NCBI GenBank assembly: GCA_043228905.1
Contig: JBHGNT010000166.1
Coordinates: 1-62,249, forward strand
Origin: Azolla caroliniana
Taxonomy: Eukaryota; Plantae; Polypodiophyta
Direction of reading: 5' to 3'
Length of the DNA stretch: 62,249 nucleotides
Made by a program: the position numbers and the translations under genes. Under the pieces are notes generated by a model that searched no databases, was not told the DNA's origin, and saw only the letters and a list, made by a program, of their open reading frames with translations. Within the stretch, counting starts at the first letter, position 1. Each line of letters opens with the position of its first letter. Below, piece by piece: positions 10,001 to 62,249 of the stretch.

Positions 10001-10130
10001 GGATATATGTCGGCTGAACTCATATTAGGGAAAAAACCAATAATGCCTATCGAGCAAAGTGTTGCTTCGTGGACATCTTTGCCATGGCAAGAGGAAATGA
10101 GTCGGGAAGACTTGCTAGACACGAGGATTC

Positions 10131-18030: not shown

Positions 18031-18044
18031 TAATATCTATGCCG

Positions 18045-18580
18045 TTTGTTTACAATTTGCACGATGCTGAAGTTACACACAAGAGGCTTGCCGATCATCA
18101 TCGTCTAGACTCAAAAAAGTTTCGTGTTGGGGATCATGTATGGCTTCTCCAACACAACATCAAGACCACTCGACCTTGCAGTAAATTGGATTACCAACGT
18201 TTTGGCCCTTACATGATCACTGGTAAGATAAGTGATGTTGCATTTCGTCTTGACCTCCCTCCACACATGCATTTTTATCCGTTGTTTCATGTATCCCTTT
18301 TCGAACCTTATACTACAAGTTCAATTCCGGGCCGTCTTACGACACCCCCACCACCTGTCGAGTTCTTGGACGGACCCGAATTGAAGTTGTTGTCGTTCTC
18401 GATTCTAAAATCGTGCGCAACAAGTTGTATTACTTAGTCGATTGGCCAAGCTATACCCCCAATGATCGAACTTGGGAACCTGCTGCAAATCTTTCCAATG
18501 CAGCGTTTTGACTTCCTCATCACATATCTGTGGAAATCCATCTCTGTGGATTTTATAACAGATCTTCCTCTTTCAAAGAA
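18045..18580 (+). pseudogene. Tcn1-like chromovirus integrase tail and chromodomain fragment
   Basis: FRVGDHVWLL...KLDYQRFGPY...FHVSLFEPY and a decayed KLYYLVDW...RTWEP, matching the intact element around 50060-50510. Confidence 0.8.
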
Positions 18581-36800: not shown

Positions 36801-38386
36801 CCGGTCTCGAGCCAGTCTCGGGTCTCTTCCCTTCGCGCTGGTGGGGGTACCTCGACCTTCCTTGTCGCAACAGAACCCGCCCCAGTCAAGCCTTTATCGA
36901 CCCACTCACGCCGTTTGTCAAAACGGCTGCAGACTCTCTTTACCACGACCCAGTCGGTTGTTAGGCCGTCATCGATCTCCAACAGGAAGCCCACTTGCTC
37001 CCGGTTCCTTGCGTCCACCGATTTAATGAACAATAGGACACGACTCGTGTTCAGCACGGTCCGGTCCAGCGCCGAAAGTCGTGCGAAGCGTTCTTCAAAC
37101 TCCCGAAGGAGCACTGACACGTTTCTCCCCTTTTCGGGGGTTTCCACCCATTCCATGAAGTCTCACTTTGACAACCGAAGCGCGTTGTCAAGCCCATATT
37201 TTTCAAGGAGCCGACCTTCATACTCTTCCCAGGTTCGAATCTCAGCCCGTACCTCAAGCACCTCCGCGTGGATGCCCGACATCGCTACCCGAGAGAATCC
37301 GGCCAGTCGCCTGTCCTCTGGGATGTCCCTCATCACCATTTTGGCTCAGTAGGCATCCAAATAGCTCATGGCGTCTTTCCCCCCGAACCGGCCTATCGTG
37401 CCAACGACCGCTTCAATAGCCCTATCGAGGGCGCCTGTGCCTTCGCGCGCACTCTCTATCCGATCCACAACTGAAGCCATGACTTCTGCAAGATCCAACC
37501 CTCTCATCTTTCTATTCCTCTGCCACCTCTTCACGTCAGGTTCACCAAATATGTCGCGTTGCTACGTGCGTGCGTGGAGAATGAGGCGGGACCACGGGGG
37601 CCTCGGACCGAGGAATAGCCAAATGAGGGGAGGGGAAGGAACTTGACTATGTAATTCTCATGCGCTCAAACCCACAGATTCACAGGATTTGCAACCAACT
37701 ACAGAACGCGAGATGGAGACAGAATGAATGCTTATGTATATATAAATCAAGGTGTTACAATCGGCAAGCCGACGAATGATAGGCTCTGACGCCTGCACAC
37801 ACACACCCACACACACGCACAGACACAGAACGCGAGATGGAGACTCTATCGGTAGCACTCGGGCGTCCTGCGGAGCAGAGTTAGCCTCCCAAAACCTGCA
37901 CAGAACAATTAAATGGGTGACGGAGGAGAGGAGAAGGGCTCAGTCCCAGTCTAGCAGCACTTCGTCCTCTACTAAACGCGATATATTTTTCAATACCTCT
38001 CCCTCTCTTTTATAGCCCAAGGAGGGAGGTCGTTACCACCCGTTACATCATGTTTATTCCCACTCCTTTCGGACAGGGATACGCATCGATTTTCTCCCTA
38101 CTGAATGCGTGCTACTTAGGATTTCACCTCAGCCGACTTGTACCCTATCCACGTACTATACAACAAAACTTGTGCCCACATGTAAGGGCCGGTTTACGCA
38201 CGTTATACGCGGTTTCCGCCTAGGGACGGTTTTCTCCACGACAACGTTGATCGAGGCTTGAGTCCGTCTCGATCCCTTCGCTCAGGGGTGGTCGGGTGGA
38301 TCGGCACCCTTCTTTCTCTCTCTCCTTTCTTATTTTATATCTATTATATCCTTATCATATGCTTACTTTAGATCATGCCTCTAACA
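30892..38386 (+). repeat. ~415-bp LTR (30892-31167 plus 38244-38386) split by element EC and followed by a TGGTATC PBS-like sequence
   Basis: Terminal inverted repeats TGTTACAGGCATGACC and GATCATGCCTCTAACA (14/16); CTATAAAT at ~31029; TGGTATC at 38389. Confidence 0.6.
31168..38243 (-). mobile_element. Full-length but degenerate Phygy-like gypsy element EC (family C)
   Basis: LTRs 37552-38243 and 31168-31861, visibly diverged; tRNA-Trp PBS 37530-37547; gag (CLWCDAVGHARKDC), PR (LLDHGSEINLM), RT (PFLDD), RNase H, integrase; PPT GGTGGGGGCGGA; flanks ACAC and ACGT. Confidence 0.92.
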
Positions 38387-39411: not shown

Positions 39412-42400
39412 ACGTTGTCGTGCCTTTCGGCTCCGGATCGTTGCGTGAGTCGGGTGGGAACCATTGAGGTTTTGGACTAGGAGAAAGAAGAATACAATAT
39501 AAGGCTAGTTATGAATAGGTAGAAAAAGAAGTAAGAAATAAAACTTGTGAATCCCACGTTTTTAGTGTATTTTAATCAATATTTAGATTGTAAGAAAGAG
39601 AATTTTGATAATAAACTCATGAATCCCACGAATATATTAGATTGATCAATCCTTGTAAAATAATCAACAACATCATACATCTTTCTCTCCTCCATATATA
39701 AGGATGGAAGAGGCTAAGCATAGCTTCATGCTTTTTCTAAAGTGTTCATGCACACTAAATGTGCTTGAGTTGCCTTTTACACTATGCTTTTATTTCCTAA
39801 ATATAGTGCTCATGCTCGCTAGATGTGCATGAGTAATTTTTTATTGGTGTACATTTTTCTTACAAATAAAGTATTCATGCATTCTAAAAATGCATGACTT
39901 GCCTTTTAATAAAGGTAGGCATAAATAAAGGTCTTATACGTATTAAATATATATTTAGAACACTTAGGATAAGTTAGTACAATGGTAAGGTTGGGGTTTG
40001 TCTATATGGAGGTATAGGGTTCAAATCTTGCCCTATGCATGTAACAATCTTTTCTTCAATTTATAAATTTGTCTCTTCATCCGGTGAGAGACTCTCACCG
40101 GCCTTCTTTATCCGACTCTTGTCGATTCTGCTTGATTTGGTTCTTACCGGGTCTTCCTTCATCCGGTTCTCACTGGTTCTCCTTACCGGTTCTTCCTTGT
40201 CCCATATGTGCCGAAGTTCCCGATGCTCATTATTCGCCTTCATCCGTATCACTCTCCGATTCTCCCCTTATGTCGACTATGAGTTGAAGTCCACTTTCTT
40301 CACTTCCCACATCACCGCGATCTTTGTCCAGTTGCTCCTCGTTGTCGGTCTTGTCTAGGGTTACATAGGGTTCTTTGTCAGTCTGGTTCTTGAAAATCTT
40401 CACCCGTTTCCCCGCTATAGGCACCCGTAGTATTGTTCCATCCAACTCGCATAGTCGGTAAGTTCCGTTGTCGAAAACTTTCCGAACCTCGTATGGCCCG
40501 AACCACCTTTTCGTGAACTTCCGTATCGTTGTATGTTGATGATCTAGACTACTGTCATAGATAATCACCCAATCTCCTTCTTCAATCTTCCGCGGTCGTA
40601 GTCGATGCTTTGTGTCGAATCAGCTTTTGTCCGGAATCGCACTTCCCGTTGTCGGCGTGTTGCTTCCGCTATGTCTTGCGGTCTTCCCTCCAGTTGTTGT
40701 ATACGGACCGCGAGTAGTTCTTCCCGACTCATCTCTTCCTTCCACAACAACACTATCCATGTCGCAATTGCGGTTTCCGTCGGCATTACCGGTGCTTGTC
40801 CGGTCATGAGTTCGGCCAGCATAAAACTAGTCACGGAGCTATGCATCATCCGATCCACCCATAGGCATATGGGAGCATCTGCGGCCAATCCTTCACCCTT
40901 CCGTCGCATGCTTTGGCAAGTGCTTTGACGATCGGACTATGTCCTTGTTCGATTTTCTTGTTGGCCTCCGGATTGTATGCCGTTGTTAGTGTTAACCGAA
41001 CTCCATGTTTGGTGAAGAATTCCCTAGCCTTATCAGAGTCGAGTTCTCTCCAATCCACAATCACTTGTCCTACGCACCAGTACCTGCAAAACACCTCCTC
41101 CAAAAGAAATTGGCATACTGCAGAACACGTTTTCCTTCGTAGCGCTCAACCTTCTACTTGGTTTGTGAGATCTTCCCGAGCTAACACCAAGTACTTCTTT
41201 TGTCCGATCCCAGTTGGCATGGCTACAATGTCGACCATCCATTTGAAGTTGATTGTCGGTGAGAATGTCGGATGTAACTCATCTCGGTGTCGAACTCCGG
41301 AGCAGATTTGACACTTCTCACAGCTTTCCATGAACTCCGTTATATCTTTGCACATATTCTTCCACCAATATTTTTGTTTGATTTTCACAAAAGTTGCCCA
41401 TGTTCCTCGATGTCCAGCCCAATCGGATTCGTGAAACTCAGACATTATCCGGTTTTGTTGCTCTTTCGTCCCGACTACCCGAAGTGGTATGCCATCCGGT
41501 CTTTTCGGCTCCCTCCATATTAATCCATTTTTCAAGAAGAACTTTTGGACTTGCCTCTTCTTCCTTCGGATCTCAGCTCTCTTCTCTTTATCGTCCGATG
41601 ATTCCTCAATCTCTTGTAGCACCTTCCCGATTATCAAGATTTCTCCCTCGTATTCTTCTTCTCGGAATTCTCGGATTACGTTTACTCGGCATATGTGCTC
41701 CGAAGCAAAGTAGTCTTTAGAAACTTCTTCATTATCGGATTTGGCTATGTCGTCTTCGAACCGAGCCCTTGATAGCATATCTACTACCGCGTTGTCTTTT
41801 CCGGATATGTGTCATACGTCCGGGTTAAGCGACTTAACATATGCAATCCATCTTAGCATAGCCACATCCGGTATCGTGCAACACCGCATCATCCTTAGTA
41901 TCGGAAGACAATCCGTTTCGATCACTACTTCGGCTCCGATAAAATAATCTCAATCCGATTTGATTGCCAACACGACTCCCCATAATTCTCTTTTGCTTGT
42001 GCATAACCACGTTGCCTTTCGTTGAGAACCTTTGCTCCAAATCGGATTGGATATCGCGAACCATCTGAGTCGACTTGATTGATGACCCATCCGATTCCGG
42101 TTGGACTTGTATCATCCGTTACTATGATCAGTCGCTCATAGCTCGGCTTCTTAAGTGCTTCAGCCCTCCGTAGTGTTTTCTTGAGCTTCTTCATGGCTTT
42201 GGTGTGTTCCGGTTTCCATTCGAACTTCTTCCCCTTCCGCAATAAGTGATAGAGTGGGTCCCCAATATGTGCATAGTGCGGAATCCATATGTGATAAAAT
42301 GCACAAGCTCCAAGAAACCTTCGGACTTCGGATCGATCTTGGTTGGTGACGGTCCTCAGCCGTAGGGCCCACATAGATGTCCGACTACCAATATCTCTTC

Positions 42401-45400
42401 TTGCCCGAATGCCGATTTCTCCCCGGAAAGTGTTAGGTGCACATCTTCTAACTTTCGAAGCACTTTCTCGCAATCATGAATATGGTCGACTACGAACTTT
42501 CAGCATTCCCGAACATCCACAGTTTCATCTTTTTCTTCTACCGCACCTCCTTTCATCTGAATGTCATCTAGGAACGACATCGTTATCTCTGGAATGCAAT
42601 CTTGAAGCACCTTGTTCATCGCGTTCATCATATGTGCAACCGAGTTTGTCGCTCGTTGTGGTAGTGTGCACATTCAGACTAATCCTATCGGTGTTCGCAT
42701 GGTAGTGATTTCTCGGCTTTCCACGACTAGTTGGAATTGGTCAGACCCCGAGTATAGGTCTCCGATGGAGTATATTGCACGACTGGCAAATGCTTCCGCA
42801 AATTTGTCCACTATCGGACCGACTTCGGAGTTCCGGATCGTGACCTTGTTCACCGGTTGCAAGTCTTGGATAAATCGGAGTGACCCATTCTTCTTTGGAA
42901 CCGTAAACCATCGATTTGAGTACGGAGCGTTTGATGGCTCTAGAATCCCCATTGCTACCTTCTCCTTGAGCAAGTCGATGACTTTCAGAATATGCGCCCG
43001 TGGCACTGGAATCGGTTTCAGGTTCCACGGCACATGGTCAATTGTGAAGATCACCATCGGCTCCACTATCTTCGGATCAACGCACCCTATCTCCTTCGAT
43101 GTGAATGCAAATGCTTTCCCATGTTGTTCCAACATCCCACGGAATCGTTCTTCTTCATTCTTTAAGAGGAATGCACCTCCACCGATCCAAAGTTTCTTCT
43201 AGGTCTCATCCGTGAAGGCATGTCTGATATACACGGACTTCTGAAGTGTCGGATCTCCCGAGACTTCTTTCCTCATTTCCTCGCTATCGGCGAGTAACGG
43301 TCCCGCGACCAGTTTCACTTTCTTCTCCACAGTCTTGTATTTCGTACTTACCATTGCTTCTTCTTTGCGGAGCGCATCCAGCCCCATTTTTGCAATGATC
43401 TCGTACATCTCCACCGATTCCACCGGGACTACCCGGTCTCCTTGGCTTTTATCCTCCACAAGATCTTCAAGCCGTTGTAGCGTGTTCCCATAGAACATTT
43501 CTTGGACTATCCCCACGATTTCTTCGTCTTCTTTTATTATTGATGCTGACCGCAACTTATCCTCTACTTTTCGGTATTCTTTCTTCTTTTCTCCGGTTAC
43601 GGCCATGTACATAGATGCCCCATCCGGACTGATTCGTACTTGTTTTGCTCCGAGAGTTTTCTTCCTGTGTGGGGTATCAGGGCTTCTCGGACTATCACTT
43701 CCCCACTTCGCAAAAGTCCGCCCTAAAAATCCATCCTTGTTTGGGACAAAAGCTCTCTCTTGTTCCTTTCATGATTTGACGACACAGTTAGGATTTGGAT
43801 GAATTTCCCTCCACTTTGGCTCCAAATTCGTGCAAAAGTCGCACCGCTATCGAGCACCTTGGTCTCCATCCGTGAAGCCATGATAAAGGGTTGCCCAAGG
43901 ATCACGGAATGTGAGACCTCGTCTTGTATGAAGAAATTCTAGTCGATCTCGACATCCCCGATCTTCACCGTCACATCCGGACAAGCTGCAAATAGATCTT
44001 CCGTTGCTTTAGTGGCTGCCCGAATCTTCCATCCATGGTTAGTGTTTATAGGCCACTTCCCCTTCCGGTAGAACTCCTTGGAAATCAAATTGATCTCTGA
44101 TCCGTGATCAATCAATGCTAGCACAGGCTCTTTGATGTTGCCGATTCGGACCAGAATCTTCGTAGTTGCATGTGCCAAGTGTGGCCTTGTGTAGTGGGAA
44201 TTTGGAATTTCGTCCCCCACTTCGGTGTCATTCATCAAAACCGTGTTCGCATTTACCCTTGGAGCGTTCTCCTTCGTACTTTGACTTTTTCTATTCACGA
44301 GATCCACAAGAAGATCATGGAACTCCTTCTTCGCTATTCTAAGTAATTCCCGAAGTGAAAATTCTACCCGGCTATCGAGGATTCTCTCCTCGAACACCTT
44401 TTTCAAATCCGTTTGTTGTTCAATGTCTGAGGTGAGCTTGAATGCCGGAATCGTCTTTTCTTTTCCCTTCCCTCCGGAGTTCCAGCTTTCCGGTGTCTTC
44501 GATGGTCCGTGCGCTGTCATTTCTTGTCTATATACACTTCATGCAATTGACATAAGGCGTACACGCTATTCTTATCGACGGGGCACTCCCATCTCGTAGC
44601 TTCACGGATGCCTTCCGCAGTGCTTCAGATCTCATTGGAGTCGGTTTGCTTAGGGTTTTCTAGCACATCCGACAAAATAGATGTTGTTGCTCGCGATGAC
44701 TCACCCACACTTATTCTCACGGTTGTCGCATAATTACCTTTCGCTGCTATTTCCTCCTCTAGGACCTTCTTCATGCCGCCTTTCCGGAAGTTCGGTCGGA
44801 GTGGATTTCGAGAGTCCATCGAATGAAGCCGATTTCCCTCGTAGTAGATAAGATCTCGTCGTAACGCCTCCTTGTGCTCGTCGCAATCCCTCCGATCATG
44901 TTCGGTGCTATCACACCATATACACCAACGGTCCATATACTTGGAACTTGTGGGACGGTGATCCGACTTCTTCACCATCGCGATTTTTAGATTCTCCATC
45001 TCCTTCAGCAACTGCTCCACTGTGGTTCCGTCGATTCCCTTCTCGGTCATAGTCTCCCGAGCCTGCGGTTGATGGTCTTCCAATCCGGATCTTGGTTTCG
45101 GAATCGGTTCCGAAACCCTCTTTTCTTCATTAGCAAGCCATTACCCCCTCTTCGTGTATCGTGCGACGATATCCCGCACGCTTTCCCATGTTTCGATGAG
45201 GCCACTCTCAGTGGTCGTGTCCTCCAAAAGCACTCCAAGATCTTTCCAGTCCCAGATGTCCACGGCTCGTAGGAACATGATCACTTTGTCGGTGTGAGGA
45301 TAGCTTGATCTCTCGCAGACAACCTCCAGAACCGACTTTCGAATGACAAAAACACATCGAGTGTCATGAGATGGCAAGACTCGAACCCATGACCTTATGG

Positions 45401-45870
45401 TATATGGGTCGAGCTCTTAACCATCTCACCATCTATTGTAATTCATAGAATATTATTTTCATTTATGTTTTATTATAAGAAAGTAATGTATATTCCAGAT
45501 TTCTCTGGAACATTCTAGAAGCTTCAGGATTATTCCTGAGAACACTATAAAAGAAGGCACTAAGCATTATGTTGAACCAAATTGGTTCAACACCAGTCTT
45601 AAGCCTCTTAGTCGATTTGTACTTATCTTTCATATAATATAAGAGCTGCTGTCATCATCCTATTTCTCTCTCTCTCTCCTCTTCTCACTTCCTCTCTCTC
45701 TCGGGAATCTTACGCAGTCCCGTCCTCTTAGTACTAATAGTACTAATAGTACTACTCTTCTTAGTACTAATTCCATCTCTGTTTTAGTACTATTCCTGAC
45801 AGTTTGAACCAATTTTTTCCTCTAGCCTACTTGTCACTCTCCCTCATCTTCCTACCCTTTCCCCTATACT

Positions 45871-47028
45871 ATGGCTACTGTTAGCGCCCAAGAATACCAA
45901 TCCGTTTTCTCCGAGCTACAGTGCCTAAAAGAAAAGTTTGTTGCCTTGGAACAAGAAAACCAACGGCTGATAGGGGATCTACAACAAATCGCTCTAGAAA
46001 AACAACAAACGCAACAACAACATGGGGAGTTAGCGTTACGGGTACAACAACTCGAAGCAGCGTTGCAACAACAAGGATCCAGTCCCCAAGGATTTCATAA
46101 AGAGCCCAAGATTGGACTTCCTGTGAAATTTGATGGAACGCGTTCGCAATTTCGGGGATTCCTTAATCAGGTACGCTTAGTCATCCAGATGCATCCTTCC
46201 CGATATCCCATTGATGCATCTCGAGTCGGCCTAATAGGCACGCTACTTAGCGGCTCAGCCTTGGCATGGTTCGCTCCGCTTCTAGAAAAACAATCGCCCT
46301 TGCTTAATAACTTTGAAGATTTTATTGGTGAGTTTAAAGCCTGCTTTGGAGACACCGATAGCATCAGGACGGCGATCAACAAGATCCGGCGATTGCGTCA
46401 AGGCGATCGTCCAGCCTCTGCCTACGCGGCGGATTTCCGCCTACTTGCTTCAGATATACCCTGGGATGATCAAGCACTAATGGAGCAGTTTCGCTATGGC
46501 TTGCGAAACGATGTCAAAGATCTACTTCTAACTTTCCCCGAAGAACCAAAGTCTCTTACGGAGGCAATCAGTCGAGCAGTTCGATGTGACAACCGCCTTT
46601 TTGAACGGCGTTCAGAACATCAATTACAGATACCACGCTCTAGGCCAGAGCCCACTTACGCCGCAGTCGCGGCTAAACCGTTTGCACGAGACATACCTCA
46701 AGCAAATACTTCGACACCGATGGAGATCGATACCATGCGTCGACGCGGCCCGTTATCGGAAGAAGAAAAGCAACGACGACGTGCCAATCGATTATGCCTT
46801 TATTGCGGTGGACCAGGACATATCGCCATCAATTGTCCCCATAGGCCAAGAAGACAGGTAAATCAAATTGTCGCCTGTACTAAACCTGAGTCAATTCTTC
46901 CCTTCGGAGTGTCTGATAGTAGTAATAGTACTAATAGAGTGTCAGATAGTATTCATAGTACTAATAGCCCAAGTATCTCAAATAAATTTGAAATCCTTAG
47001 TCAATTAGATGAAGAGTTAAACGATTGA
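45871..47028 (+). CDS. gag: Gag (coiled coil, capsid, CCHC zinc knuckle)
   Basis: 385 aa; PVKFDGTRSQFRGFL, LRQG...AYAADF, PMEID, CLYCGGPGHIAINC. Confidence 0.95.
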   Translation: MATVSAQEYQSVFSELQCLKEKFVALEQENQRLIGDLQQIALEKQQTQQQHGELALRVQQLEAALQQQGSSPQGFHKEPKIGLPVKFDGTRSQFRGFLNQVRLVIQMHPSRYPIDASRVGLIGTLLSGSALAWFAPLLEKQSPLLNNFEDFIGEFKACFGDTDSIRTAINKIRRLRQGDRPASAYAADFRLLASDIPWDDQALMEQFRYGLRNDVKDLLLTFPEEPKSLTEAISRAVRCDNRLFERRSEHQLQIPRSRPEPTYAAVAAKPFARDIPQANTSTPMEIDTMRRRGPLSEEEKQRRRANRLCLYCGGPGHIAINCPHRPRRQVNQIVACTKPESILPFGVSDSSNSTNRVSDSIHSTNSPSISNKFEILSQLDEELND

Positions 47029-50000
47029 GTCCAGCCAAAATAGGAGCCATTTGGTTGGACAGCAGCCCTAGATCTGTACAGCCCATTAGTGGTTCCATTC
47101 CTTCCAAGCAAGTTAGCAATGTGTTCCTAGCCCAAGTCATTGTTAGTACTAAAAGTACTCCCCCAGTACCCGTCCTAGCACTTTTAGATTCCGGAGCTAA
47201 TTCCTGTTTCATGGATCGAAATTTTGCCCAAGCTTCTCAGATATCCTTAAGAAAACTTCCTTGTCCCGCATCTGTAGTGGTCATTGATGGTCGTCCCATT
47301 GCTTCCGGGAATATTGTAGAAGAATCAGAACCCATTCAAGTTGTCCTAGGTAGTTTTGTGTGTATAATATCATTTAATATAATTAGTAGTCCAGAGCATC
47401 CCATTGTCCTAGGATTACCTTGGCTTGAGTTACATAATCCAGCCATAGATTGGAGAACAAGAGAAGTCCGATATCGACCACCCCAAGAATCAACTCGCCG
47501 AGTTTCGACCATTTCACTCCATCAACTACGCGAAGAAGGACCCAAGGAGGCAATGTTCCTATTTTCCATATCAGTACATCCTTCCAGCACTATTAAGAAG
47601 GACTCCTCAGTACAACTTCCGGCAAAATATCATCCTTATGCCGATGTATTTGACAAGGTAAAAGCCGGTACCCTTCCTCATCACCGTCCCTATGACTGTC
47701 CCATCGATTTACAACCAGGAACCGAGCCACCATGGGGACCAATTTACAACCTGTCACCCATCGAGTTAGAAGTCCTTCGAGCCTACATAGAGGAGAACTT
47801 GGCAAGCAGGTTCATCCGTCATTCGAAATCTCCGGCCGGTGCACCCATCTTCTTTGTCAAGAAGAAAGATGGCTCACTTCGTCTTGTCGTTGATTACCGC
47901 GGATTAAATAAAGTCACCATCCGGAATAGGTATGCACTTCCTCTTATATCAAGTCTTTTAGAGCGAGTTAATGGTGCCAAGTTTTTTACTAAAATCGACC
48001 TACGCGGAGCGTATAATCTCGTGCGGATCCGACCGGGAGATGAGTGGAAGACCGCTTTTCGCACGCGGTATGGGCATTTTGAGTATACTGTTATGCCGTT
48101 TGGCCTAACCAATGCACCCGCAGTCTTCCAACACATGGCAAATGATATATTCAGAGACCTCTTGGATATCTGTTTGATCATTTATCTGGATGATCTGTTG
48201 ATTTATTCGAAGACCCAGGAAGAGCACGACTCTCATGTACTATTAGTACTAAAGCGACTCCGCGAGAATGGTCTTTATGCCAAGCTAGAAAAATGTAGCT
48301 TTGACTGCAAGCAAGTGGAATTTCTAGGCTACGTCATCTCCTCAAAGGGCATCGCCATGGATCCAGCTAAGATCCAAACTATACTAGAGTGGCAAATTCC
48401 ACGGTCGGTACGAGATGTACAATGTTTTCTAGGTTTTGCTAACTTCTACCGTAAGTTTATACAGGATTACTCGAAGATTATTTTACCTCTCACACAACTT
48501 ACGAAGAAGGGCCAAGCATTTCTTTGGTCCATTGAAGCAGATATGGCTTTTCGGCATCTTAAGAAAGCCTTTACATCAGCACCGATTCTAGCTCATGTGG
48601 ATACAAGCAAACCATTCATCATGGAGGCCGACGCATCAGATTTTGCCCTCGGTAGCATCCTTTCTCAACAAGGTGATAAAGAAGAGTTGCATCCGGTGGC
48701 TTTCCATTCGCGCAAATTCGATGTCGCAGAAATCAACTACGAAATACATGACAAGGAGTTATTAGCCATCGTGGATTCATTTGTACAATGGCGGCATTTC
48801 TTAGAGGGCTCTCCACATCAGGTCATTGTCTTCAGCGATCATAAAAATCTTGCTTATTTTCAGAACGCTCGCGTACTAAATCGACGGCAAGCTCGGTGGG
48901 CACAATTCCTCACGCGTTTCGACTTCAAAATCACATATCGACCGGGGAAGCAGCAAGGAAAAGCAGATGCACTATCACGACGTTCATATCTTGCACCTCG
49001 TCCTGGTGAAGCAACATTTGATAATCAAAAGCAAGTAATCTTGGGACCAACACGATTGCACACGACGCGGATTTTTCACACCCCGATGGATTCACGGATT
49101 ACCGATGACATACGTGCAACCTTGAAGACGGATAGTTTTGCTCAAGACATCCTGGCGCACATTGATACTTCTCGGGCATCCTGTTCTCAGTCTCAACAAC
49201 CAGGTATTGACTACCGACAATTCGAATATCATGATGGTTTGTTATTCTTTAAAAAGCGCGTATATGTCCCCGATTGCTCCTGTCGCCTTCAAATTGTCCA
49301 ACATTGTCACGACACCCATACGGCGGGACATTTCGGTAGTACTAAGACGTTGGAGCTAGTGCAGCGATCTTTTTGGTGGCCCCACATGCGCCGTTTTGTC
49401 GACGACTACGTTTGGACCTGTGATGCTTGCTGCCGAGCAAAGATGCCACGACACCATCCATATGGCTTGTTGGAACCTTTACCAATTCCAAGTAAGCCAT
49501 GGCAGTCTATTTGTCTTGATTTTATCACAGATCTGCCGGTCTCGAAAGGGTTCGATGCTATCCTAACCGTCGTCGATCGATATACGAAGATGGCACATTT
49601 TGTGCCATGTACTAAAGCCATCACTAGCGAGGAAACCGCCGCTCTTGTTATGTGTGAGGTTTTTCGGCATCATGGCCTCCCAGACAGTATTATCAGTGAC
49701 CGAGGCCCGCAATTTGTCTCCAAATTTTGGCAGCATCTCTTCAAGATGCTCAAGGTCTCCTGCAACCTCTCCTCCGGCTACCATCCTCAAACCGACGGAC
49801 AGGCGGAACGAACAAACCAAACGCTGGAGCAATATCTCCGGTGTTTCCTGAGTTATCAACAGGACGATTGGGCCGAGATTCTCCACTTTGCGGAGTTTGC
49901 GTATAATAATGCTATTCACTCCTCGACTCGGGTCTCCCCATTTTTCGCTTATACCGGTTTCCATCCTCGCTGGTCGGTGATCGACACTCCGGAGCTACCT

Positions 50001-50597
50001 ACCAACCCTCGTGCCGAGGATCATTTGGAGAGGCTACGCAAGATCCAGATGGATCTCTCTACTCACCTTCGTCATGCTCAACACACACAGAAGACTTATG
50101 CGGATTGTCATCGGATTCCCTCCTCTTTTGCCATCGGAGATCGAGTATGGCTCTTACGTCGTCACATCAAGACTACTCGACCGTGCGACAAGTTGGATTA
50201 TCGACGACTCGGTCCTTTCCGTATTACGGGGAAGATTAATGATGTCACCTTCCGCCTTGATCTCCCTCCGCAGCTTCAGATACATCCGGTTTTCCATTGT
50301 TCTCTTCTTGAACCTTATAAAGCAAACACCATTCCCGATCGTGTGACACCACCGCCGCCCCCACTGGAGTTGGACGCCGGCCCGGAGTATGAAGTTGCTG
50401 CCATCCTCGATTCCAAACTTGTTCGCAACAAACTCTATTACTTGGTCGATTGGCTCGGTTATAGTCCGAGCGAACGTACTTGGGAACCCGTCGAGAATGT
50501 TGCCAATGCACAAGATCTTCTTGCTGATTTCCACCGAAAGTATCCGGACAAACCCGGTCCGCAAGTAGCGCTGACTCGTTCCACTCGTCGTCTTTAA
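47013..50597 (+). CDS. pol: Pol: protease-RT-RNaseH-integrase-chromodomain, in the -1 frame relative to gag
   Basis: LLDSGA; YLDD; DASD; HHCC and DDE integrase; C-terminal YEVAAILDS...YLVDWLGY...TWEP chromodomain. The frame opens at 47013 with no ATG nearby. Confidence 0.95.
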   Translation, partial: RVKRLSPAKIGAIWLDSSPRSVQPISGSIPSKQVSNVFLAQVIVSTKSTPPVPVLALLDSGANSCFMDRNFAQASQISLRKLPCPASVVVIDGRPIASGNIVEESEPIQVVLGSFVCIISFNIISSPEHPIVLGLPWLELHNPAIDWRTREVRYRPPQESTRRVSTISLHQLREEGPKEAMFLFSISVHPSSTIKKDSSVQLPAKYHPYADVFDKVKAGTLPHHRPYDCPIDLQPGTEPPWGPIYNLSPIELEVLRAYIEENLASRFIRHSKSPAGAPIFFVKKKDGSLRLVVDYRGLNKVTIRNRYALPLISSLLERVNGAKFFTKIDLRGAYNLVRIRPGDEWKTAFRTRYGHFEYTVMPFGLTNAPAVFQHMANDIFRDLLDICLIIYLDDLLIYSKTQEEHDSHVLLVLKRLRENGLYAKLEKCSFDCKQVEFLGYVISSKGIAMDPAKIQTILEWQIPRSVRDVQCFLGFANFYRKFIQDYSKIILPLTQLTKKGQAFLWSIEADMAFRHLKKAFTSAPILAHVDTSKPFIMEADASDFALGSILSQQGDKEELHPVAFHSRKFDVAEINYEIHDKELLAIVDSFVQWRHFLEGSPHQVIVFSDHKNLAYFQNARVLNRRQARWAQFLTRFDFKITYRPGKQQGKADALSRRSYLAPRPGEATFDNQKQVILGPTRLHTTRIFHTPMDSRITDDIRATLKTDSFAQDILAHIDTSRASCSQSQQPGIDYRQFEYHDGLLFFKKRVYVPDCSCRLQIVQHCHDTHTAGHFGSTKTLELVQRSFWWPHMRRFVDDYVWTCDACCRAKMPRHHPYGLLEPLPIPSKPWQSICLDFITDLPVSKGFDAILTVVDRYTKMAHFVPCTKAITSEETAALVMCEVFRHHGLPDSIISDRGPQFVSKFWQHLFKMLKVSCNLSSGYHPQTDGQAERTNQTLEQYLRCFLSYQQDDWAEILHFAEFAYNNAIHSSTRVSPFFAYTGFHPRWSVIDTPELPTNPRAEDHLERLRKIQMDLSTHLRHAQHTQKTYADCHRIPSSFAIGDRVWLLRRHIKTTRPCDKLDYRRLGPFRITGKINDVTFRLDLPPQLQIHPVFHCSLLEPYKANTIPDRVTPPPPPLELDAGPEYEVAAILDSKLVRNKLYYLVDWLGYSPSERTWEPVENVANAQDLLADFHRKYPDKPGPQVALTRSTRRL

Positions 50598-52693: not shown

Positions 52694-53623
52694 TATCGTG
52701 CGGTTTTTCACACACGATATGAAAACTAGTAAAACATTTATTTAAGATTAGCTTAATGTATTCATATGGAAAGATAGATGTCTTCAAGAGCTTTATAACG
52801 TATTTTACTACGCATGAAACGGATAAACAAGTATCAGGTTATGTGAGTGTGAAGTTTGAAGAAAAAAAAGAAAAGACAAAACTATGAGATATCCCACATA
52901 GATAGGACAACATTCGAACCCAAGATATATAATGGAAACCAAAACATATTCATTCTATCAATGTGTGGAGCACAAAATGTTCAAGGTGACTTGGGCTACA
53001 TTGTGTGGTGTGCATGTTTTAGGCATATGTGCGTGTGCACGACCGTGTGGATGCTATGGGCGTATGCGTGTGCAAGTTTCGGACATTTTCGGACATTTTC
53101 GGACATACGCGCATGTGCAAGTTTCGGGCGAACGCGTGCACGACCGCCTGCACGTTTCGGACGGACACACGCGTGCGTGGATGCATACACCATGCGGTCG
53201 GGACTTTTAGGCATATGTGCGTGTGCACGACCGTGTGGATGCTATGGGCGTATGCGTGTGTGCACGACTGTGTGGACATTTTCGGACGTACGCGCATGTG
53301 CAAGTTTCGGGCGAACGCGTGCACGACCGCCTGCACGTTTCGGACGGACACACGCGTGCGTGGATGCATACACCATGTGGTGGGGACTTTTAGGCATATG
53401 TGCGTGTGCACGACCGTGTGGATGCTATGGGCGTATGCGTGTGTGCACGGATGTGTGGACATTTTCGGACGTACGCGCATGTGCAAGTTTCGGGCGAACG
53501 CGTGCACGACCGCCTGCACGTTTCGGACGGACACACGTGTGCGTGGATGCATACACCATGCAGTCGGGACTTTTTGCGCACAGACGCGTTTATGGTTTGG
53601 TTGCGACGCACGCACGAATATGC
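52694..53623 (+). repeat. Family-B LTR 5' portion with three ~183-188 bp tandem RY-rich units (53017-53572)
   Basis: Matches 12408 onward; units start at 53017, 53205 and 53388; interrupted by E5 at 53624. Confidence 0.88.
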
Positions 53624-54537
53624 TGTCGTAGTGTGAATTACACACTATGTGAGATATGTAAAACACTATATCCGATTTAGAGTACGTATAATAAATAAAA
53701 AAATATTAAAAATATTTATTATGTGCATAGGGCAGGATTCAAACCCTGTACCTCCACGTAGACAAACTGTAGCCTTACCACTATACTAGCATACTATGAA
53801 TCTTAAAGTTATACTAAACTTTATCTCATCTAAATATTCTAGATATGCATGGTACAAAAAGTTATTCATGCATACACACTCGAGTTAAAAGAAAAGATGG
53901 GATAGAAAGCTAATCATGCACATGCAGTGTGCATGAAAACTAAAGTTAGGAAAAGCAAGATGCTTGCATGTGATAAACTTAGACTCTTCCAACTCTATAT
54001 AAGGAAGAGAGAAAGATGTATAGGGGTTGTTGATTTTCTTTAGAAGGATTGATTAATACAAAATATTCGTGGGATTCATGATTTTACCATCTAATTCTCT
54101 CTTACAATCTAATTGCCCATTAATACATTATACTCGTGGGATTCACGAGTTTCATATCTTCTTCTTACTATCACTTCCTAACTAACATTATCTCATATTC
54201 TTCTTTCTCGTAGTCCAAAACCCCAGCGGTTCCCACCCGACTCACGCAAATGATCCGGCGCCGAAAGGCATGACACAAGTGGTGAACCCGACGTGAACAC
54301 GGGTGGCAAGGAGATGGAAAATCAACTAGAGGCTAACAACATGATGATGATGTTCGAGCGGATGCTTCAAGAACAACGTGCGATGTCGGAGATAATGGCG
54401 ATAGTAGAGCGTCTCGTGCAATAGATCGGGCAATTCAACGGAAAGGACGTATCTCGCTATCTTCGGGACTACAAGGCGGAAATGATATGGTGTGGGATTT
54501 CGGAAGGACTACAAGTGACATCCTTCAACCAGGTGGC
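53624..54537 (+). mobile_element. Phygy-like family A element E5: 5' LTR, PBS and gag start
   Basis: LTR TGTCGTAGTG...GGCATGACA 53624-54275; perfect tRNA-Trp PBS 54280-54297; gag ATG at 54314; cut at 54538 by a chromovirus. Confidence 0.88.
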
Positions 54538-57500
54538 TGTCATGATATGGCAAGACTCGAACCCTTGACCTTAGGTTATATGGGTCGAGCTCTTGACCAT
54601 TAGATCATCTATTGTAATACGTAGGATATTATTTTCATTTACATTTTATTATAGGAAATTAATGTATATTCCAGATTTCTCCGGAACATTCTAAAAGCTT
54701 CAGGATTACTCCTGAAAACACTATAAAAGAGGGCACTAGGCATTATGTTGAACCAAATTGGTTCAACGCTAGTCTTAAGCCATTTAGCCACCATTGTATA
54801 TTCTCTTCACATAATACATATCTTTCGTATCATCACTCTCTCCCTCTCTCGATCTCTCTCTTTCTCTCTATCTCGCTCACTTCTTCCTTCTCTTAAAGAA
54901 GTTCTACACCTCTCATAGTACTAATCCTTCGTTTAGTACTAATTCCTTCTTTGTCTTAGTACTGTTCCTGACAGTTTGAACCAATTTTCCTACTTTCTGT
55001 CTCTCTAATTTCCGACTAATCTCTTATTCCTCTTTTCTTTCATCCCATGGCCACTGTTAGTGCTGAAGAATATCAATCTGTTTTCTCGGAATTTCAATGC
55101 TTGAAAGAGAAGTTCCATGCTTTGGAACAAGAAAACCAATGGTTGATGGGGGATCTTCAGCAAATCTCCTTACAAAAGCAGCAAACGCAACAACAGCATG
55201 GGGAACTTGCGTTACGCGTGCAACAACTCGAAGCCACCATCGTAGCGATGCAACAACAAGGGCCCGGAACACAAGGGATTCATAAAGAACCCAAGATTGG
55301 CCTTCCCACGAAGTTCGATGGAACGCAATCGCAGTTTAGAGGGTTCCTTAACTAGGTACGATTAGTTATTCAAATGCATCCTTCCCGATATCCCACCGAT
55401 GCATCACGAGTGGGTTTAGTAGGCACTTTGTTAAGTGGCTCAGCGTTGGCATGGTTCGCTCCACTATTAGAAAAGGAATCTCCGTTACTCAACAATTTTG
55501 AAGAGTTTCTAGGTGAGTTTAAAGCATGTTTCGGAGATACTGACAGCATCAGGACCGCAATCAACAAAATTCGGCGATTACGCCAAGGTGACCATCCAGC
55601 CTCCGCATACGCTGCAGATTTTCGCCTACTCGCCGCCGATATCCCTTGGGATGATCAAGCGTTGATGGAGCAATTCCGTTATGGTTTACGCAACGACGTC
55701 AAGGATTTACTCTTGACCTTCCCCGAGGAGCCAAAGTCCTTAACAGAGGCAATCAATCGCGTGATGAGATGTGACAACCGCCTCTTTGAGCGAGGTTTGG
55801 AACGACAAGTACAAATGCCGAGGGCAAGATCAGAACCCACCTATGCCTCAATGGTAGGAAGACCTTTTCCGAGGGAGTCATATAATGTGCCTCCAGCGAA
55901 TACTCTGACACCGATGGAGATTGACACTACACGTCGTCAAGGGCCATTATCCGAAGAAGAAAAGCAGCGATGCCGTACAAATTGACTGTCTTTACTGCGG
56001 TGGACCAGGACATATCGCAATAAATTGCCCCCATAGGCCAAGAAGACAGGTAAACCAAATAGTCGCTAGTTCTAATTGTACTAAACCCGAGCCTATTTCA
56101 GTAGGGATATTTGATAGTCCTAATAGTACTAATAGCCTAGATCTAGCGAACAAATTTGATGTCCTTAGTCAGTTAGAAGAAGAGTTAAACGACTAAGTCC
56201 AGCCAAAATAGGAGCCGTTTGGTTGGACAACCCTAGATCTATGCAACCCATTAGTGGTTCCATTCCCTCTAAGCAAGTTAGTGATATGTTCGTAGCCCAA
56301 GTAATAGTTAGTACTAAAAGTACCCCTCCAGTACATGTCCTAGCACTCCTAGATTCCGGAGCGAACTCCTTCTTTATGGATAAGAAATTTGCTCAAGCTC
56401 ATAAGATATCCCTAAGAAAACTCCAGTGTCCAGCCTCTATAGTAGTCATTGGACGTCCCATTGCTTCCGTAAATATCATAGAAGAGTCAGAGCCCATTAA
56501 TATTGTCCTAGATAACTTAGCATATGTAGTATCATTTAATATTATTAGTATCCCAGAACATCCTATAGTTTTAGGATTACCGTGGTTTGAGTTACATAAC
56601 CCAGACATAGATTGGAGAATAAGAGAAATCCGGTGTCGACAAACCCAAGGGTCAACTCAGAAGATGGCAACCATTTCACTATGTCAGTTGCGTAAAGAAG
56701 GGCGCAATGAGGAAATGTTACTCTTTGTAATATCAGTAAACCCCTCCAGCACCACTAAAGAAGAATCCACCGTTCAACTTCCCGAGAAGTATCGTCATTA
56801 CGCCGATGTGTTCGATAAAGTACAAGCCAACACACTTCCTCATCATTGACCGTACGATTGCCCCATCGATTTACAACCAGGAAAAGAGCCGCCATGGGGA
56901 TCGATCTACAATTTGTCACCAACCGAGCTGGAAGTCCTTCGGGCTTATATAGAGGAGAATTTGGAAAATGGTTTCATTCAGCATTCGAAATCTCCAGCCG
57001 GCGCGCCCATTTTCTTCGTCAAGAAAAAGGATGGATCGCTTCGTCTCGTTGTAGATTATCGTGGCTTGAATAAGGTTACAATAAGGAATAGGTATGCTCT
57101 TCCCCTTATCTCAAGTCTTTTAGAACGGATCAATGGTGCCAGGTTCTTCACGAAGATCGACTTACGGGGAAGCATATAACCTCGTACGGATCCGACCAGG
57201 AGACAAATGGAAGACCGCGTTTCGCACCAGATATGGGCACTTCGAGTATATGGTCATGCCGTTCGGCCTCACTAATGCGCCGACAGTCTTCCAACACATG
57301 GCTAATGATATATTCTGAGATCTATTGGATGATTGTTTGATCATCTATTTGGATGATCTACTGGTTTATTCAAAGACCCAAGAAGAACATGATTCTCATG
57401 TACTATTAGTACTAAAACGACTTCGAGAACATGGTCTGTATGCAAAGCTGGAAAAATGTAGTTTCAGGTGCAACCAAGTGGAATTTCTCGGCTACATCAT

Positions 57501-59055
57501 TTCGTCAGAAGGCATCTCCATGGACCCAACTAAGGTCAAAACGGTGGTAGAATGGCTGACTCCGCGTTCGGTGCGGGATGTGCAATGCTTCCTAGGCTTT
57601 GCCAATTTTTACCAGAAGTTCATACAAGATTACTCAAAGATTGTTCTACCTCTTACACAACTTACCAGGAAGGGACAACCGTTCATCTGGTCTAAAGAAA
57701 CGGACATGGCTTTCAAGAGTCTTAAAAAGGCATTTACATCGGCTCCAATACTAGCTCATGTTGATTCGGAAAAACCATTCATTATCGAAGCTGACGCATC
57801 GGATTTTGCATTGGGGAACATTCTGTCACAACAGGGGAATGATGAGAAGCTACATCTTGTGGCTTTTCACTCACGCAAGTTTGACGCCGCCGAAATCAAC
57901 TACGAAATTCATGATAAGGAGCTATTGGCAATAGTGGATTCTTTTATGCAATGGAGGCATTTTCTGGAGGGATCCTCTCATCCAGTCACCGTATTTAGTG
58001 ACCACAAGAATCTTGCCTACTTTTAGGATGCTCGTGTGTTGAATCGACGTCAAGCTCGGTGGGCCCACTTCCTCATGCGTTTTGACTTCAAAATTACATA
58101 TCGTCCGGGGAAGCACCAAGGGAAGGCAGATGCATTATCACAACGTTCGTATCTAGCACCCCGTCCCGGCGAGCCAGCTTTCGATAACCAAAAACAAGTC
58201 ATCTTGGGACCGACACGACTACAAGCAACACAGATCTTTGACATGCCCATGGATTCCCGTGTTATCGATACCATACGTGAAGACTTGAAGACAGATGCGT
58301 TCGCCCAAGCTATACTAGCACAAATTGATCCCTCTCGAGTGTCGTGTTCACAGTCGCAACCACTAGGTACGGACTATCGGCAATTCAAATACCATGATGG
58401 ATTACTCTTCTTTAAAGAACTTTTGTATGTTCCTAATGGTTCTTGCCGCCTTCGAGTAGTACAAAACTGTCATGACACATATACAGCTGGGCATTTTGGT
58501 AGTACTAAAACATTAGATTTATTACAACGATCATTCTGGTGGCCCTGTATGTGACAATTTGTCGAGGATTTTGTTCGGACTTGTGATACATGCTATAGAG
58601 CGAAAATGCCAAGGCATCATCTGGTTTATTAGAACCATTACCAATTCCAAGCAAGCCGTGGCAATCCATTGCTCTAGACTTCATCACAGATCTTCCAGTC
58701 TCTAAGGGGTTCAATGCGATTCTAACGGTGGTTGATCGATATACGAAGATGGATCATTTCTTGCCATGTACTAAGGAGATCTCAAGTGAAGACACTGCCG
58801 AAATTGTCATGCGTGAAGTATGTCGGCATCATGGACTTCCCGATAGTATCATCAGTGACCGTGGACCCCAGTTCGTGTCAAAATTCTGGAAGCACCTTTT
58901 TAACATGCTCAAGGTCACTTGTAACCTCTCCTCCGGCTACCACCCACAAACCGACAGCCAAGCTGAACGAACAAATCAAACGCTGGAGCAGTATGTGCGG
59001 TGCTTTCTCAGCTATCATCAGGATGACTGGGCAGATATTCTCCACTTCGCCGAAT
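54538..59055 (+). mobile_element. Degenerate, 3'-truncated Tcn1-like chromovirus
   Basis: 5' LTR 54538-54972; gag and pol are homologous to 45871-49900 with many stops and frameshifts; ends within integrase. Confidence 0.92.
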
Positions 59056-59094
59056 TAAGGCCATGTAACTCTAAGGGAGCCCTTTCCGTCCCCG

Positions 59095-61190
59095 ATGAAG
59101 CCCCCAAAAAGGGCATCTAAAGTGCAATCAAGATTAGCAAAAAAGAAGACCACTAAAATGTCGGACTTCGACTCATCAAGCTCAACCAAAGATGAGGACC
59201 CTAGGGGGACGCCAAGTGCTGAGGTGGCATTTGGTGTGTTGTCATCCGAGCAGAATAAGATACAGAGAGAGTTAATGTAGCGCAAACTGGTGAGAAAAGG
59301 GCAAGTGTTTAATTTGCCTATAACACACATCCATCGCCCCCCCTAGTAGATGTAATAATAGGATGAAGACCAGTTGAGATTAGAGAGCCGCACCGAATGC
59401 ATGTTCAGAATCTCAAGAAAAAAATGAAAATAAATCTGCATGCTACAATTGTGCCTTTTATTGTGATGGTAGATCCCGAAGAATGTTCCACAACTAAGGA
59501 CTTCGACGTGAGAAAGCATGATCAATACAATTACTTTGTAATTGGTGGATCACAATTGGTTGAAGCATGCCGACAGCTTGTTAGAGAGCACCCAACGACT
59601 TTCTTCTTCAAGTATGCTGAGTGCAAAATATACGTGGGCCTCACAACTAAAGAGGCAAAGCTTTTGGTATGGGACCACAACAACGACAACGACTATAGGC
59701 AGAAAATGTCATCTATTGAATGGATAAGGTTCTTCCACCATGAATACCTGGACGTCAAACAAAAGTTTGGTGTGAAGCTACACCCCGGCCTACGACGTCA
59801 ATGCCTTCATGAGGTCGGCATGGTGGTGGATGATAATGTTAAGTCTGATGGTCTTCGGAAATATGAGTCCTGGTTTCAACTTGCCTTTAGAGATGGAGAA
59901 GTATGGGACCTACAAGATCAAATCTTCTCAATGTGGGAGAATAAGGAGGTCAAGGGTCAACGACAAAAGAAATGTAAGGTAGACCCTCAGCTAGAATTAA
60001 AGCCACAAGTGGCCAATAAAATTGATTTGACAATTGAAGAAGTGGTTGACTACATGAAGCTGTCTCTGTGGAGAGCGATGCAAGGTATTAAGGACGAGTA
60101 GCTTCTTGTGTCTATTTTGTCAAGGGCTGTGGCGAAAGAATTAAGCCTTGAAGAAATGGTCATTGAGTTCAATAAGTAAGTTTTTCAAATAGTGATATTG
60201 AATTCAATATGGTGCAATATAAAGTTCTAATTTCACATTCATAAGGTGTACATGAAGATCCAAGAAGTTATGATGAAACAACTTGGATGTATAACTTGGG
60301 AACAAGTGACCGAGGATTATCCTCTAATGTCTTCATATAAGGCGTTATCTGAGTATTTTATTGCATTCAAGGATTGGGTTAGTATTGGCGTTTTTCATTA
60401 AGTATTCCTCATATGTAGAGGTTGTGTAATAATATTTGATGTCTTATTGCTTCTATTAGAAACCGTGTCGTGGCAAGAAACAAGGAGAAGTTAACGATAT
60501 ACACGATTTGTCGACATCCTTCCTTGCACATCTCAAGAGAGCCAAAAAAGAAAAGGATCGTCGCTTAGTCAAGGGGTACGAAATTGAGGAAGATGGCTCC
60601 TTCAAAAAAATTAGCCACAAAAAGGACATTACTAGAGATCTTTACTACAACGTGATTTGTGGCGATGTCGTTGACATGATCCAAAAAGTGCCAAAGAAGA
60701 AATATATACTAATGATGGTTGATATTCCATACAAATTTCGAATGGCAGGGTCTTCATACGACGATGAACCTTTTAGGTTCAAACAATTAGAGAAGATGGT
60801 CAAGGATTTTGCTAAGCTAATGACTGCATCCTTGTGGAGGATAGTTGTCTTTCATAGTATGGACCAAGGGTACTTGGTAGCTCAAACTTTGAGATCTCGT
60901 TGCCATGGCATCGAGAACCTTGCATGGTAACGATTATTTATAAGTCTCATTCACTATATTGCCTTTCTTAATATTGTTCAATCTATTCTTAACTCGATGC
61001 AATATTTGTTATAGGATAAAAACCAATGTCAATAGAGGGCCAACCTTTCAGTTCGTAAATGCCATTGAATACATTACAGTTGACTGCTTCGATGAAATAA
61101 AGAAACAAAGAATCAAGGAGCATTCTAATGAAGTCGGAGGTTCAAATATGCTAGTATATCCAACAGTGACAAGGAAATTGCGACATGTCA
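59095..61190 (+). pseudogene. Spliced ParB-like domain plus beta-class N6-adenine/N4-cytosine DNA methyltransferase fusion gene, decayed and 3'-truncated
   Basis: ParB-like pattern LPITHI...IREP...HVQNLKKKM...PFIVMV...YFVIGGSQLVEACRQL...IYVGLTTKEAKLL...HN. MTase pattern VICGD (60652-60666), VDIPY (DIPY 60721-60732), WIKTN...FVNAIEYI...SNMLVYP. Putative GT-AG introns ~60176-60245 (phase unclear), 60378-60459 and 60927-61014. Confidence 0.65.
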
Positions 61191-61709
61191 CTACGACAGA
61201 ACGAGGACTTGTCAAGTTTAGTATCCTACATTGTCCACAATTATATACATACGAGTATGGGTCAAAATATAAATTATAACTCATTTTATTAGTATGGATA
61301 CAAGTACACCTCATATTTTTGTAAAACTTACCAAAATAATATAAGTCTTTAACTTAGTGTTTGCCATGTTGCACATTAGTGAGATATTGACCCATTGTTG
61401 AAATTTATTATGCTTACATTAACTTATCAACACATCCAAACTTATTTGAATTTCTAATGTTCTCCACTCGGAGACCTATCATGTATTGTTATATTTGCAA
61501 ATTTTAATCAAGTTGTGGAACATGTGATACTAGTGCATCCAATTTTTGTAGAGAGGGTATATTTGGATATTTTCAAGAAGATTCTACAAGTGGAATGCGC
61601 GATCCTTCCACTTGTGAACGCGAATGTGTTTATATCTTTTGTTATCATCATTCTCTCTCTCAATCTCGATCTCTCTCTCTCAAGTAAATTCTCGATGACC
61701 CAGGAAACC

Positions 61710-62110
61710 AAAGATAGGCTAACGAGAGGGTATGCATCCCTCTCACTCTTAGAGAAACAATGCCACCAGGCATACTTTCAAGAGTCACAGACCAAGGGAT
61801 GACTCTTTGACTCATTAGTGACCCCTTCCCTCATGTATGCATCAGTAGTATGGGCTCCAGGTCTACCATCTTTCATGTGGACGCAATTAGAGAGACCTTT
61901 GGTGACGATGTTATCACGTCAAATACGAAGCAAATCAACAGTACCACATTACATTATTAGAGCAGAGTTCAGTCTACCCCCGATGTAAGTAGAAGCACTC
62001 TTTCAAGTGGTAGTTTTTATTCATCGGATACATAGCCAACCACAAGATAGGATATCCCGTCGAGCCTTTGAGGCATCTTGATCCCTACATGTGTCTGGAG
62101 ACACTAGCTC
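61710..62110 (+). mobile_element. LINE ORF2 fragment (region after RT)
   Basis: Reading through the stop after ORF 61515-61802 gives LFDSLVTPSLMYASVVWA...IIRAEFSLPP, typical of a LINE RT thumb region. Confidence 0.6.
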
Positions 62111-62249
62111 TTGAATTTCTTCGAAGTGACTAAGACGATCCTCGGCAACAGGGTTGGTAGGAACGACTGGATGCGCACTCATCGTCCAAAATAGGAGTCA
62201 TTTGGCTGGACCATCCAAGCTATGTAGAGTTAGTTTCTAGTTCTTTTCA

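Follow-up and report, generated by a model that had tools for sequence, protein, structure and literature searches.

Does a fern genome carry a gene for a ParB-like protein fused to a DNA amino-methyltransferase and, if so, what moves it and which mark would it write? The window, i.e., the whole stretch of 62,249 nucleotides analyzed here (Azolla caroliniana, contig JBHGNT010000166.1), ends in what had been predicted from its letters alone as a broken, intron-containing fusion of this kind. Enzyme-made N6-methyladenine (6mA) in multicellular plants is disputed, the consensus being that enzymatic 6mA was lost in multicellular lineages (bioRxiv 10.64898/2026.05.21.726589), and the family described below bears on this question.

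The gene remnant and its relatives

The remnant and the DNA at either side of it contain the following features:

59056..59059, no strand: junction of a deletion, where a Ty3/gypsy integrase fragment runs into the middle of exon 1
59059..60175, + strand: exon 1, truncated at its 5' end (basic/Ser linker, ParB/Srx-fold domain, helical region)
about 59280-59740, + strand: ParB/Srx-fold domain within exon 1, placed by the predicted fold of the relative P0002 (89% identical)
60176..60238, + strand: intron 1, phase 2, which retains the donor GTAAGT but has lost its acceptor
60239..60377, + strand: exon 2, helical linker, open, 95% identical to L004
60378..60459, + strand: intron 2, phase 0, 82 nt, GT-AG
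60460..60926, + strand: exon 3, open, first half of the beta-class amino-methyltransferase, DIPY near 60718-60729
60927..61014, + strand: intron 3, phase 2, 88 nt, GT-AG, splitting a Trp codon
61015..61215, + strand: exon 4 remnant, ending at a 1.3-kb deletion
61214..61595, no strand: subterminal non-coding transposon DNA, 85% identical to L002 4484-4901
61596..61630, - strand: right terminal inverted repeat (TIR), matching the left end of L007 at 33/35 bases

The cargo gene is real, and the copy in the window is dead. The motifs on which the original prediction was built lie where it had placed them: IREP..H..LKK, PFIV, YFVIGGS, and HN at 59370-60098, VICGD and VDIPY within 60460-60926, and, following a Trp codon split as TG and G across intron 3, IKTN..FVNAIEY..SN..YP. 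Both limits of the gene had to be moved. The gene does not start with the ATG at 59095, as homology begins at 59059 and the relatives are ~170 residues longer upstream, and the break was not near 61190, since homology runs to 61213-61215. There, the internal deletion (L002 3180 to 4484) took PYQKP, the FSGTG SAM-binding motif, intron 4, and exon 5, so that the copy does break off before the SAM-binding motif as had been said; at 61215, the loose ends of eight contigs of run X5 run on into the missing part. The stops and the frameshift that had been reported were located in exon 1, at 59278, 59364, and 60099 and, as a +2 shift, near 59343-59345. Among the claimed GT-AG introns, 2 and 3 are canonical and agree with the relatives in position and phase, whereas intron 1 is unusable, its acceptor having been lost to a 13-bp deletion and a change of AG to AT near 60238. 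Private C-to-T changes affect 19/72 CHG (26%), 14/100 CG (14%), and 20/486 CHH positions of this copy, against 21/975 (2%) for the A/T transitions used as a control, an excess that is the trace of host 5-methylcytosine (5mC), this copy having once been methylated.

At 59057-59059 the gene is cut and fused to the Ty3 integrase fragment, which explains why the transposase gene, the palindrome array, and the left TIR found in the relatives are absent from the window. Reads from other copies show that the Ty3 element and the cargo gene each continue normally past this point. The decayed element on the Ty3 side (55020-59056) is related, with 78% identity across the integrase, to a Ty3/gypsy chromovirus-type element at 45826-50597 (+) whose gag (400 aa) and pol (1194 aa; RT-RNase H-integrase-chromodomain) are both open. 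Elsewhere, the window holds decayed Ty3-type elements with DUF4100 gag-region ORFs (143-9745 +, 32469-37162 -, 41146-45140 -, and 13726-15666 -), a Copia RT fragment (23112-23900), tandem-repeat arrays that read as repetitive ORFs (10047-10804 and 52853-53705), and a 263-aa ORF at 17258-18049 (-) with no Pfam match and a C2HC zinc-finger-like motif, which we take to be typical of LINE ORF2 C-termini. Another high-copy repeat, with contigs in run X19, starts just past the right TIR (61650-62249).

A search with exon 1 retrieved 236 representatives at E<=0.001 and 23 longer proteins at 68-91% identity, the sole species-named one of the latter being from the fern Ceratopteris richardii. Among 30 representatives that were looked up, the named ones belong to Adiantum, Ginkgo, Riccia, Chara, and, weakly, Saccoglossus. 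These relatives point to a land-plant host, probably a fern. By scanning metagenomes we confirmed 170 of 528 candidate stretches, and 80 loci were kept as the set of relatives. Contigs of three DNA runs span the whole cargo gene in thousands of variant pieces, which makes the family a high-copy one. Many of these loci are collapsed, redundant high-coverage contigs, so that the counts given below are non-independent, the statements apply at the level of subfamilies, and “intact” may describe a consensus of copies rather than a single copy.

L002 supplies what the window lacks, namely PYQKP, DLFSGTG (divided by the fourth intron between DLFSG and TG), and exon 5. Four introns are common to the relatives at the same position and phase (phases 2, 0, 2, and 1), in support of the predicted splicing. 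GT donors occurred in 60/63, 54/57, 40/43, and 35/39 loci for introns 1 to 4 where the junction could be modeled, the rest of the 80 loci being too short or decayed; the script selected the GT/GC-AG pairs giving the best open junction, so these dinucleotides are partly due to construction and the result is the agreement in place and phase. All four junctions were modeled in 38 loci. In 28 of them an uninterrupted frame extends from the ParB domain to the stop, 3 have no stop in the stretch read, and 7 are broken. DIPY was found in 32 and DLFSGTG in 31 of the 38, with no variant in the readable ones, so paralogs with the SAM-binding motif do exist. DIPY, W.KTN, PYQKP, DLFSGTG, and LEKD were invariant across the 28 intact loci, which cover three subfamilies with saturated synonymous sites. 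The dN/dS values were 0.018-0.083 in 13/36 region comparisons (12 of the 15 chosen pairs were computable), dS being saturated in the others. These comparisons indicate that the cargo gene is under purifying selection. Two further runs were not taken as evidence of expression. In X19, RNA by guess, the window's gene is matched by no contig and L002 by two short, divergent pieces; in X20, of unknown kind, one contig skips about the length of intron 4, with unknown letters in between.

The five pieces of the window's own copy gave no significant Pfam match, and its ParB and methyltransferase identity is therefore taken from relatives and a fold. Such a result would suit a chance reading or bacterial contamination, but both are refuted by the conserved spliceosomal introns with purifying selection, by the named relatives in Ceratopteris, Adiantum, Ginkgo, Riccia, and Chara, and by the lack of any real prokaryotic or viral locus among GTDB genomes and viral contigs. 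A GTDB match of 60 codons at the edge of a MAG contig of 66% GC, with no other part of the gene, was treated as a misassembly. Neither the transposase profile nor the related protein P0043 found a relative among the viral contigs.

The two halves of the cargo protein

An AlphaFold2 model of P0002 (pLDDT 78) matches ParB, Noc, KorB, PadC, and sulfiredoxin. Foldseek gave 11 matches at E<=0.001; the 10 listed were all ParB or Noc, with ParB 6sdk as the best (E 2.6e-5), and a VIA match to PadC had a Z of 9.2 and an rmsd of 2.8 over 96 residues. On this model, the cargo protein has the ParB/Sulfiredoxin fold that had been proposed from motifs, followed, like bacterial ParB of ParB-parS systems, by a helical region. 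However, at the nucleotide-site motif all 28 intact loci read GGSH[SA/ST/SV]EA and not GxxRxxA, the CTP-binding arginine motif of CTP-clamping ParB. With GGSHS in the place of the CTPase motif, a clamp-and-slide mode is not supported. Between subfamilies, the ParB part is slower than the transposase (p-distance about 0.25 versus 0.41).

Among the distant relatives of the ParB part, P0173 is from the hemichordate Saccoglossus kowalevskii (E 3e-7), P0095 is fused to a sterile-alpha-motif domain, and some distant gene models carry the ParB part without the methyltransferase. The ESM Atlas neighbors of exon 1, a lead only, were unnamed and DUF3723 clusters at 0.94-0.96. Together, the Saccoglossus and P0095 relatives and the fungal DUF3723 neighbors suggest a wider eukaryotic family of ParB-like cargo. 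In the relatives, the protein has a predicted N-terminal beta domain that is deleted in the window (P0002 residues 62-177, pLDDT above 90); its weak likeness to M18BP1 SANTA (Z 6.0) and to PH folds (Z about 4.5) makes a chromatin- or protein-binding module possible, judging by the model.

The second half scored above the Pfam N6_N4_Mtase cut-off (PF01555, 26.7) in L002 (exon 4, 35.1 bits), L006 (exons 4-5, 42.1), and six distant proteins, with 65.7 for P0029, in agreement with the beta-class identity first deduced from the motifs. As in M.RsrI, M.MboIIA, and CcrM, motif IV (DIPY, exon 3) precedes motif I (DLFSGTG, across intron 4), the beta-class order. DIPY is a variant motif IV in which Ile replaces the first Pro of DPPY. 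Sequence matches to solved structures were the adenine enzymes M.RsrI, M.MboIIA, and CcrM, plus the DpnA-labelled 5hek, and the phage DNA methyltransferase family phrog_67 matched P0029 (E 1.5e-27). Proteins of Chara, Riccia, Adiantum, and Ginkgo keep the order ParB, helical region, methyltransferase with a varying motif IV, which in Chara, Adiantum, and Ginkgo drifts to DFPY, DLPY, DAPY, DIPH, or DFPC, as expected if catalysis is dispensable in some lineages; two deep relatives have DPPY.

The prokaryotic derivation that had been proposed is supported for one half of the protein. Phage and plasmid matches were restricted to the methyltransferase part, at 23-29% identity, while the ParB part had no prokaryotic match, and no donor was identified; the origin is thus likely prokaryotic but ancient. 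The cargo methyltransferase differs from bacterial beta-class enzymes in this low identity, in DIPY instead of DPPY, and in its introns. A recent horizontal transfer was rejected, as there were no close prokaryotic relatives. Word-seeded protein searches returned no protein with exon 3 and, among shorter proteins, a single one with the methyltransferase part of P0043.

The transposon and its palindrome array

In all 10 loci where the match lies at least 3.5 kb from the contig start, the cargo gene is accompanied by a divergent intronless ORF of ~900 aa with Cys clusters, a DUF7869 match (E 1e-51 or better), and the invariant acidic motifs IDGMDQ, QLDNT.RENKN, and GHTHDHIDQ. The elements are about 7.6-8.6 kb long and end in inverted repeats of about 35 bp with termini AACAC...GTGTT, both ends being present in L032, L042, L026, and L033. 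L032, 7.7 kb long, is complete and lies within a Ty3 pol frame, bounded by a 4-bp TGTT target duplication (TSD); the other three two-ended contigs have unmatched flanks. Thirty termini with differing flanks indicate many insertion sites. The cargo gene, originally considered probably transposon-borne, thus rides a TIR cut-and-paste DNA transposon, as shown by its linkage to the DUF7869 ORF, the TIRs, and the TSD. With two near-duplicates removed, transposase and cargo distances at the remaining 8 loci are correlated (Mantel rho 0.84, p 0.004), and the two trees split into the same three subfamilies, the cargo tree leaving the finer branching unresolved. Copies also nest within their own family (L015:3280, L030:4040-6332, and L029:1913-2840): intron 4 of one subfamily A copy harbors an end of subfamily C, and another copy has a family member inserted into its transposase. 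In L009, an intact-looking PPR-type host gene of 844 aa (6691-9222 +) lies 1.7 kb past the right TIR of the element.

We infer that the DUF7869 ORF is a Sola1-like transposase, and the superfamily is likely Sola1-like in view of the 4-bp TSD, the AAC termini, and the Ectocarpus precedent (Sola features according to PMC3627910, PMC5751038, and PMC3845634). The protein model was too poor (pLDDT 42) and gave no structural match at E<=0.001, nor did the sequence match any solved structure. The target preference of Sola1, AWWT (PMC3845634), was seen in 1 of 30 flanking 4-mers, and the Ectocarpus Sola1 is listed without it in the available text of PMC12477816. Sola2 was rejected, since a comparison by eye with the Sola2 alignment (PMC3627910, supplement 10) showed other motifs than those of the DUF7869 ORF.

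The layout of a ParB-methyltransferase transposon is already in print for algae, in Ectocarpus Sola1-1_Ec32, which carries an accessory gene for a 1104-aa ParB-like protein with an N4C/N6A methyltransferase (PMC12477816). By its published description, that element resembles ours in the fusion, encoded on the strand opposite to the transposase, in termini that begin with AAC (AACCG in Ectocarpus, AACAC here), in the 4-bp TSD, and in the self-modification proposed for it. It differs in the host, a land plant here, in length (21.5 kb versus about 7.6-8.6 kb), and in its TIRs (282 versus about 35 bp), and the available text on it mentions no palindrome array. Neither land-plant members nor a helically phased array were found in the literature searched, where subscription papers are sparsely covered.

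The array lies between the divergent DUF7869 ORF and the cargo gene. Its unit is a 17-bp palindrome, TCGATRC-NNN-GYATCGA, flanked by AA and TT (full form AA[CG]TCGATRC-NNN-GYATCGA[CG]TT) and similar in length to parS. There were 142 sites in the 29.7 kb upstream of the cargo gene versus 12 in 142 kb elsewhere, and 23 of 29 loci with at least 400 bp upstream carried two or more, against 0-0.02 per region in shuffles; the intergenic interval of L026 entered this count empty (0 sites), and subfamily C (L042, L045) has a single site. In 4 of 6 pairs, the palindrome is kept between subfamilies whose intergenic DNA has diverged beyond alignment. The spacings form clusters at 31-33, 40-42, 50-53, 63, and 72 bp, and 107 of 123 deviate by no more than 2 bp from multiples of 10.4 (39% expected), counts that are non-independent owing to tandem amplification; 20 of the 27 distinct values fit as well. 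That different unit lengths all fit whole helical turns suggests, from spacing, that the bound proteins share one face of the helix.

Possible roles of the cargo protein

In the reading towards which we lean, the window contains the right half, now decayed, of a land-plant TIR transposon of many copies. In intact relatives of this transposon, the ParB-methyltransferase likely loads on the palindrome array and likely writes 6mA nearby, so as to keep the promoter region of transposase and cargo active in the face of silencing by host 5mC. By analogy with ParB on parS, the ParB part plus the helical part would bind the palindrome as a dimer, and several cargo-protein dimers would sit on one face of the helix. 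The methyltransferase would be active and adenine specific, placing 6mA on nearby element DNA, and the mark would keep the promoter region shared by transposase and cargo active, favoring the element. The nearest solved sequences, all adenine enzymes, and the two deep relatives with DPPY speak for 6mA, whereas the catalytic DIPY, which drifts in distant relatives, counts against it. The palindrome binder could equally be the transposase. The lone site of subfamily C and the former 5mC methylation of the copy in the window also speak against this reading. More tentatively, one might generalize to a high-copy transposon family of ferns and further streptophytes with its own parS/ParB-like addressing, in which the phased array recruits a ParB-fold methyltransferase, 6mA is set on a bidirectional promoter, and this local adenine mark counters 5mC silencing in land plants, a generalization we regard as plausible though somewhat doubtful.

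A self-modifying role has also been proposed for the published analogues in Ectocarpus (PMC12477816) and Bostrychia (bioRxiv 10.1101/2025.02.11.637652), and the present family would be the first test of such accessory proteins of algal transposons. The family provides an enzyme and a target array that can both be named, as well as numerous dead copies for comparison, so that a test for 6mA could draw on long-read kinetic data that already exist. The family would also offer a compact sequence-targeted methylase module. Prokaryote-like adenine methyltransferases are carried as well by DIRS and LTR retrotransposons with DAM, and raised 6mA and transcription are reported for the LTR members (bioRxiv 10.64898/2026.05.21.726589); unlike our element, these are retrotransposons with a DAM-family enzyme, linked to hosts with AMT1, and the words “ParB” and “Sola” are absent from the available text of that preprint.

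The same element with the same targeting might instead write N4-methylcytosine (4mC), for example at the TCGA or CG of the palindrome, and block 5mC there. The beta-class fold and Pfam N6_N4_Mtase span both chemistries, the CG-rich palindrome keeps its CGs although CG and CHG decay fast in this genome, and a beta-class 4mC writer has been shown in Marchantia (bioRxiv 10.1101/2021.02.12.428880). Still, the best solved matches are adenine enzymes, and motif IV begins with Asp, unlike the TSPPY of MpDN4MT1, which makes 4mC decidedly improbable. MpDN4MT1a/b resemble the cargo protein as prokaryote-type beta-class amino-methyltransferases in a land plant; they are, however, sperm-expressed host genes that write 4mC, with no “ParB” in the available text, whereas here a ParB fusion is carried by a transposon and DIPY, never TSPPY, stands in all 32 readable loci.

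We consider unlikely, too, a reading in which the protein serves as an accessory factor that binds DNA sequence-specifically (a promoter activator, an anti-silencing factor in the manner of VANC, or an end-pairing helper) and whose methyltransferase part binds SAM or flipped bases and marks little or nothing. The slower ParB part, the non-canonical and drifting motif IV, and the distant gene models lacking the methyltransferase would all fit this. Against it stand the five motifs from DIPY to LEKD, which are invariant in the 28 intact loci of three subfamilies.

Finally, the cargo might act in trans on the host or genome-wide, on a short DNA motif or on RNA, leaving the palindromes to the transposase. 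In eukaryotes, enzymes of the beta class were recruited several times to mark RNA or, genome-wide, DNA (PMC4738411, whose available text includes no such land-plant clade among those given), and the predicted PH/SANTA-like N-terminal domain, a weak match, could bind chromatin proteins. Against this, the gene has remained within a mobile element of high copy number, the two diverging together, and inverted-repeat arrays also adjoin the ParB cargo genes of the unrelated Plavaka elements (bioRxiv 10.1101/2025.02.11.637652), so that action in trans seems very unlikely to us. Like our element, the Plavaka (EnSpm) PAG2/PAG3 of Bostrychia have ParB-like cargo by tandem inverted repeats, a PF01555 methylase as cargo, and a proposed self-modification, but they belong to another superfamily and divide the parts between separate genes, a 2OG oxygenase being the fusion partner of ParB and SET that of the methylase.
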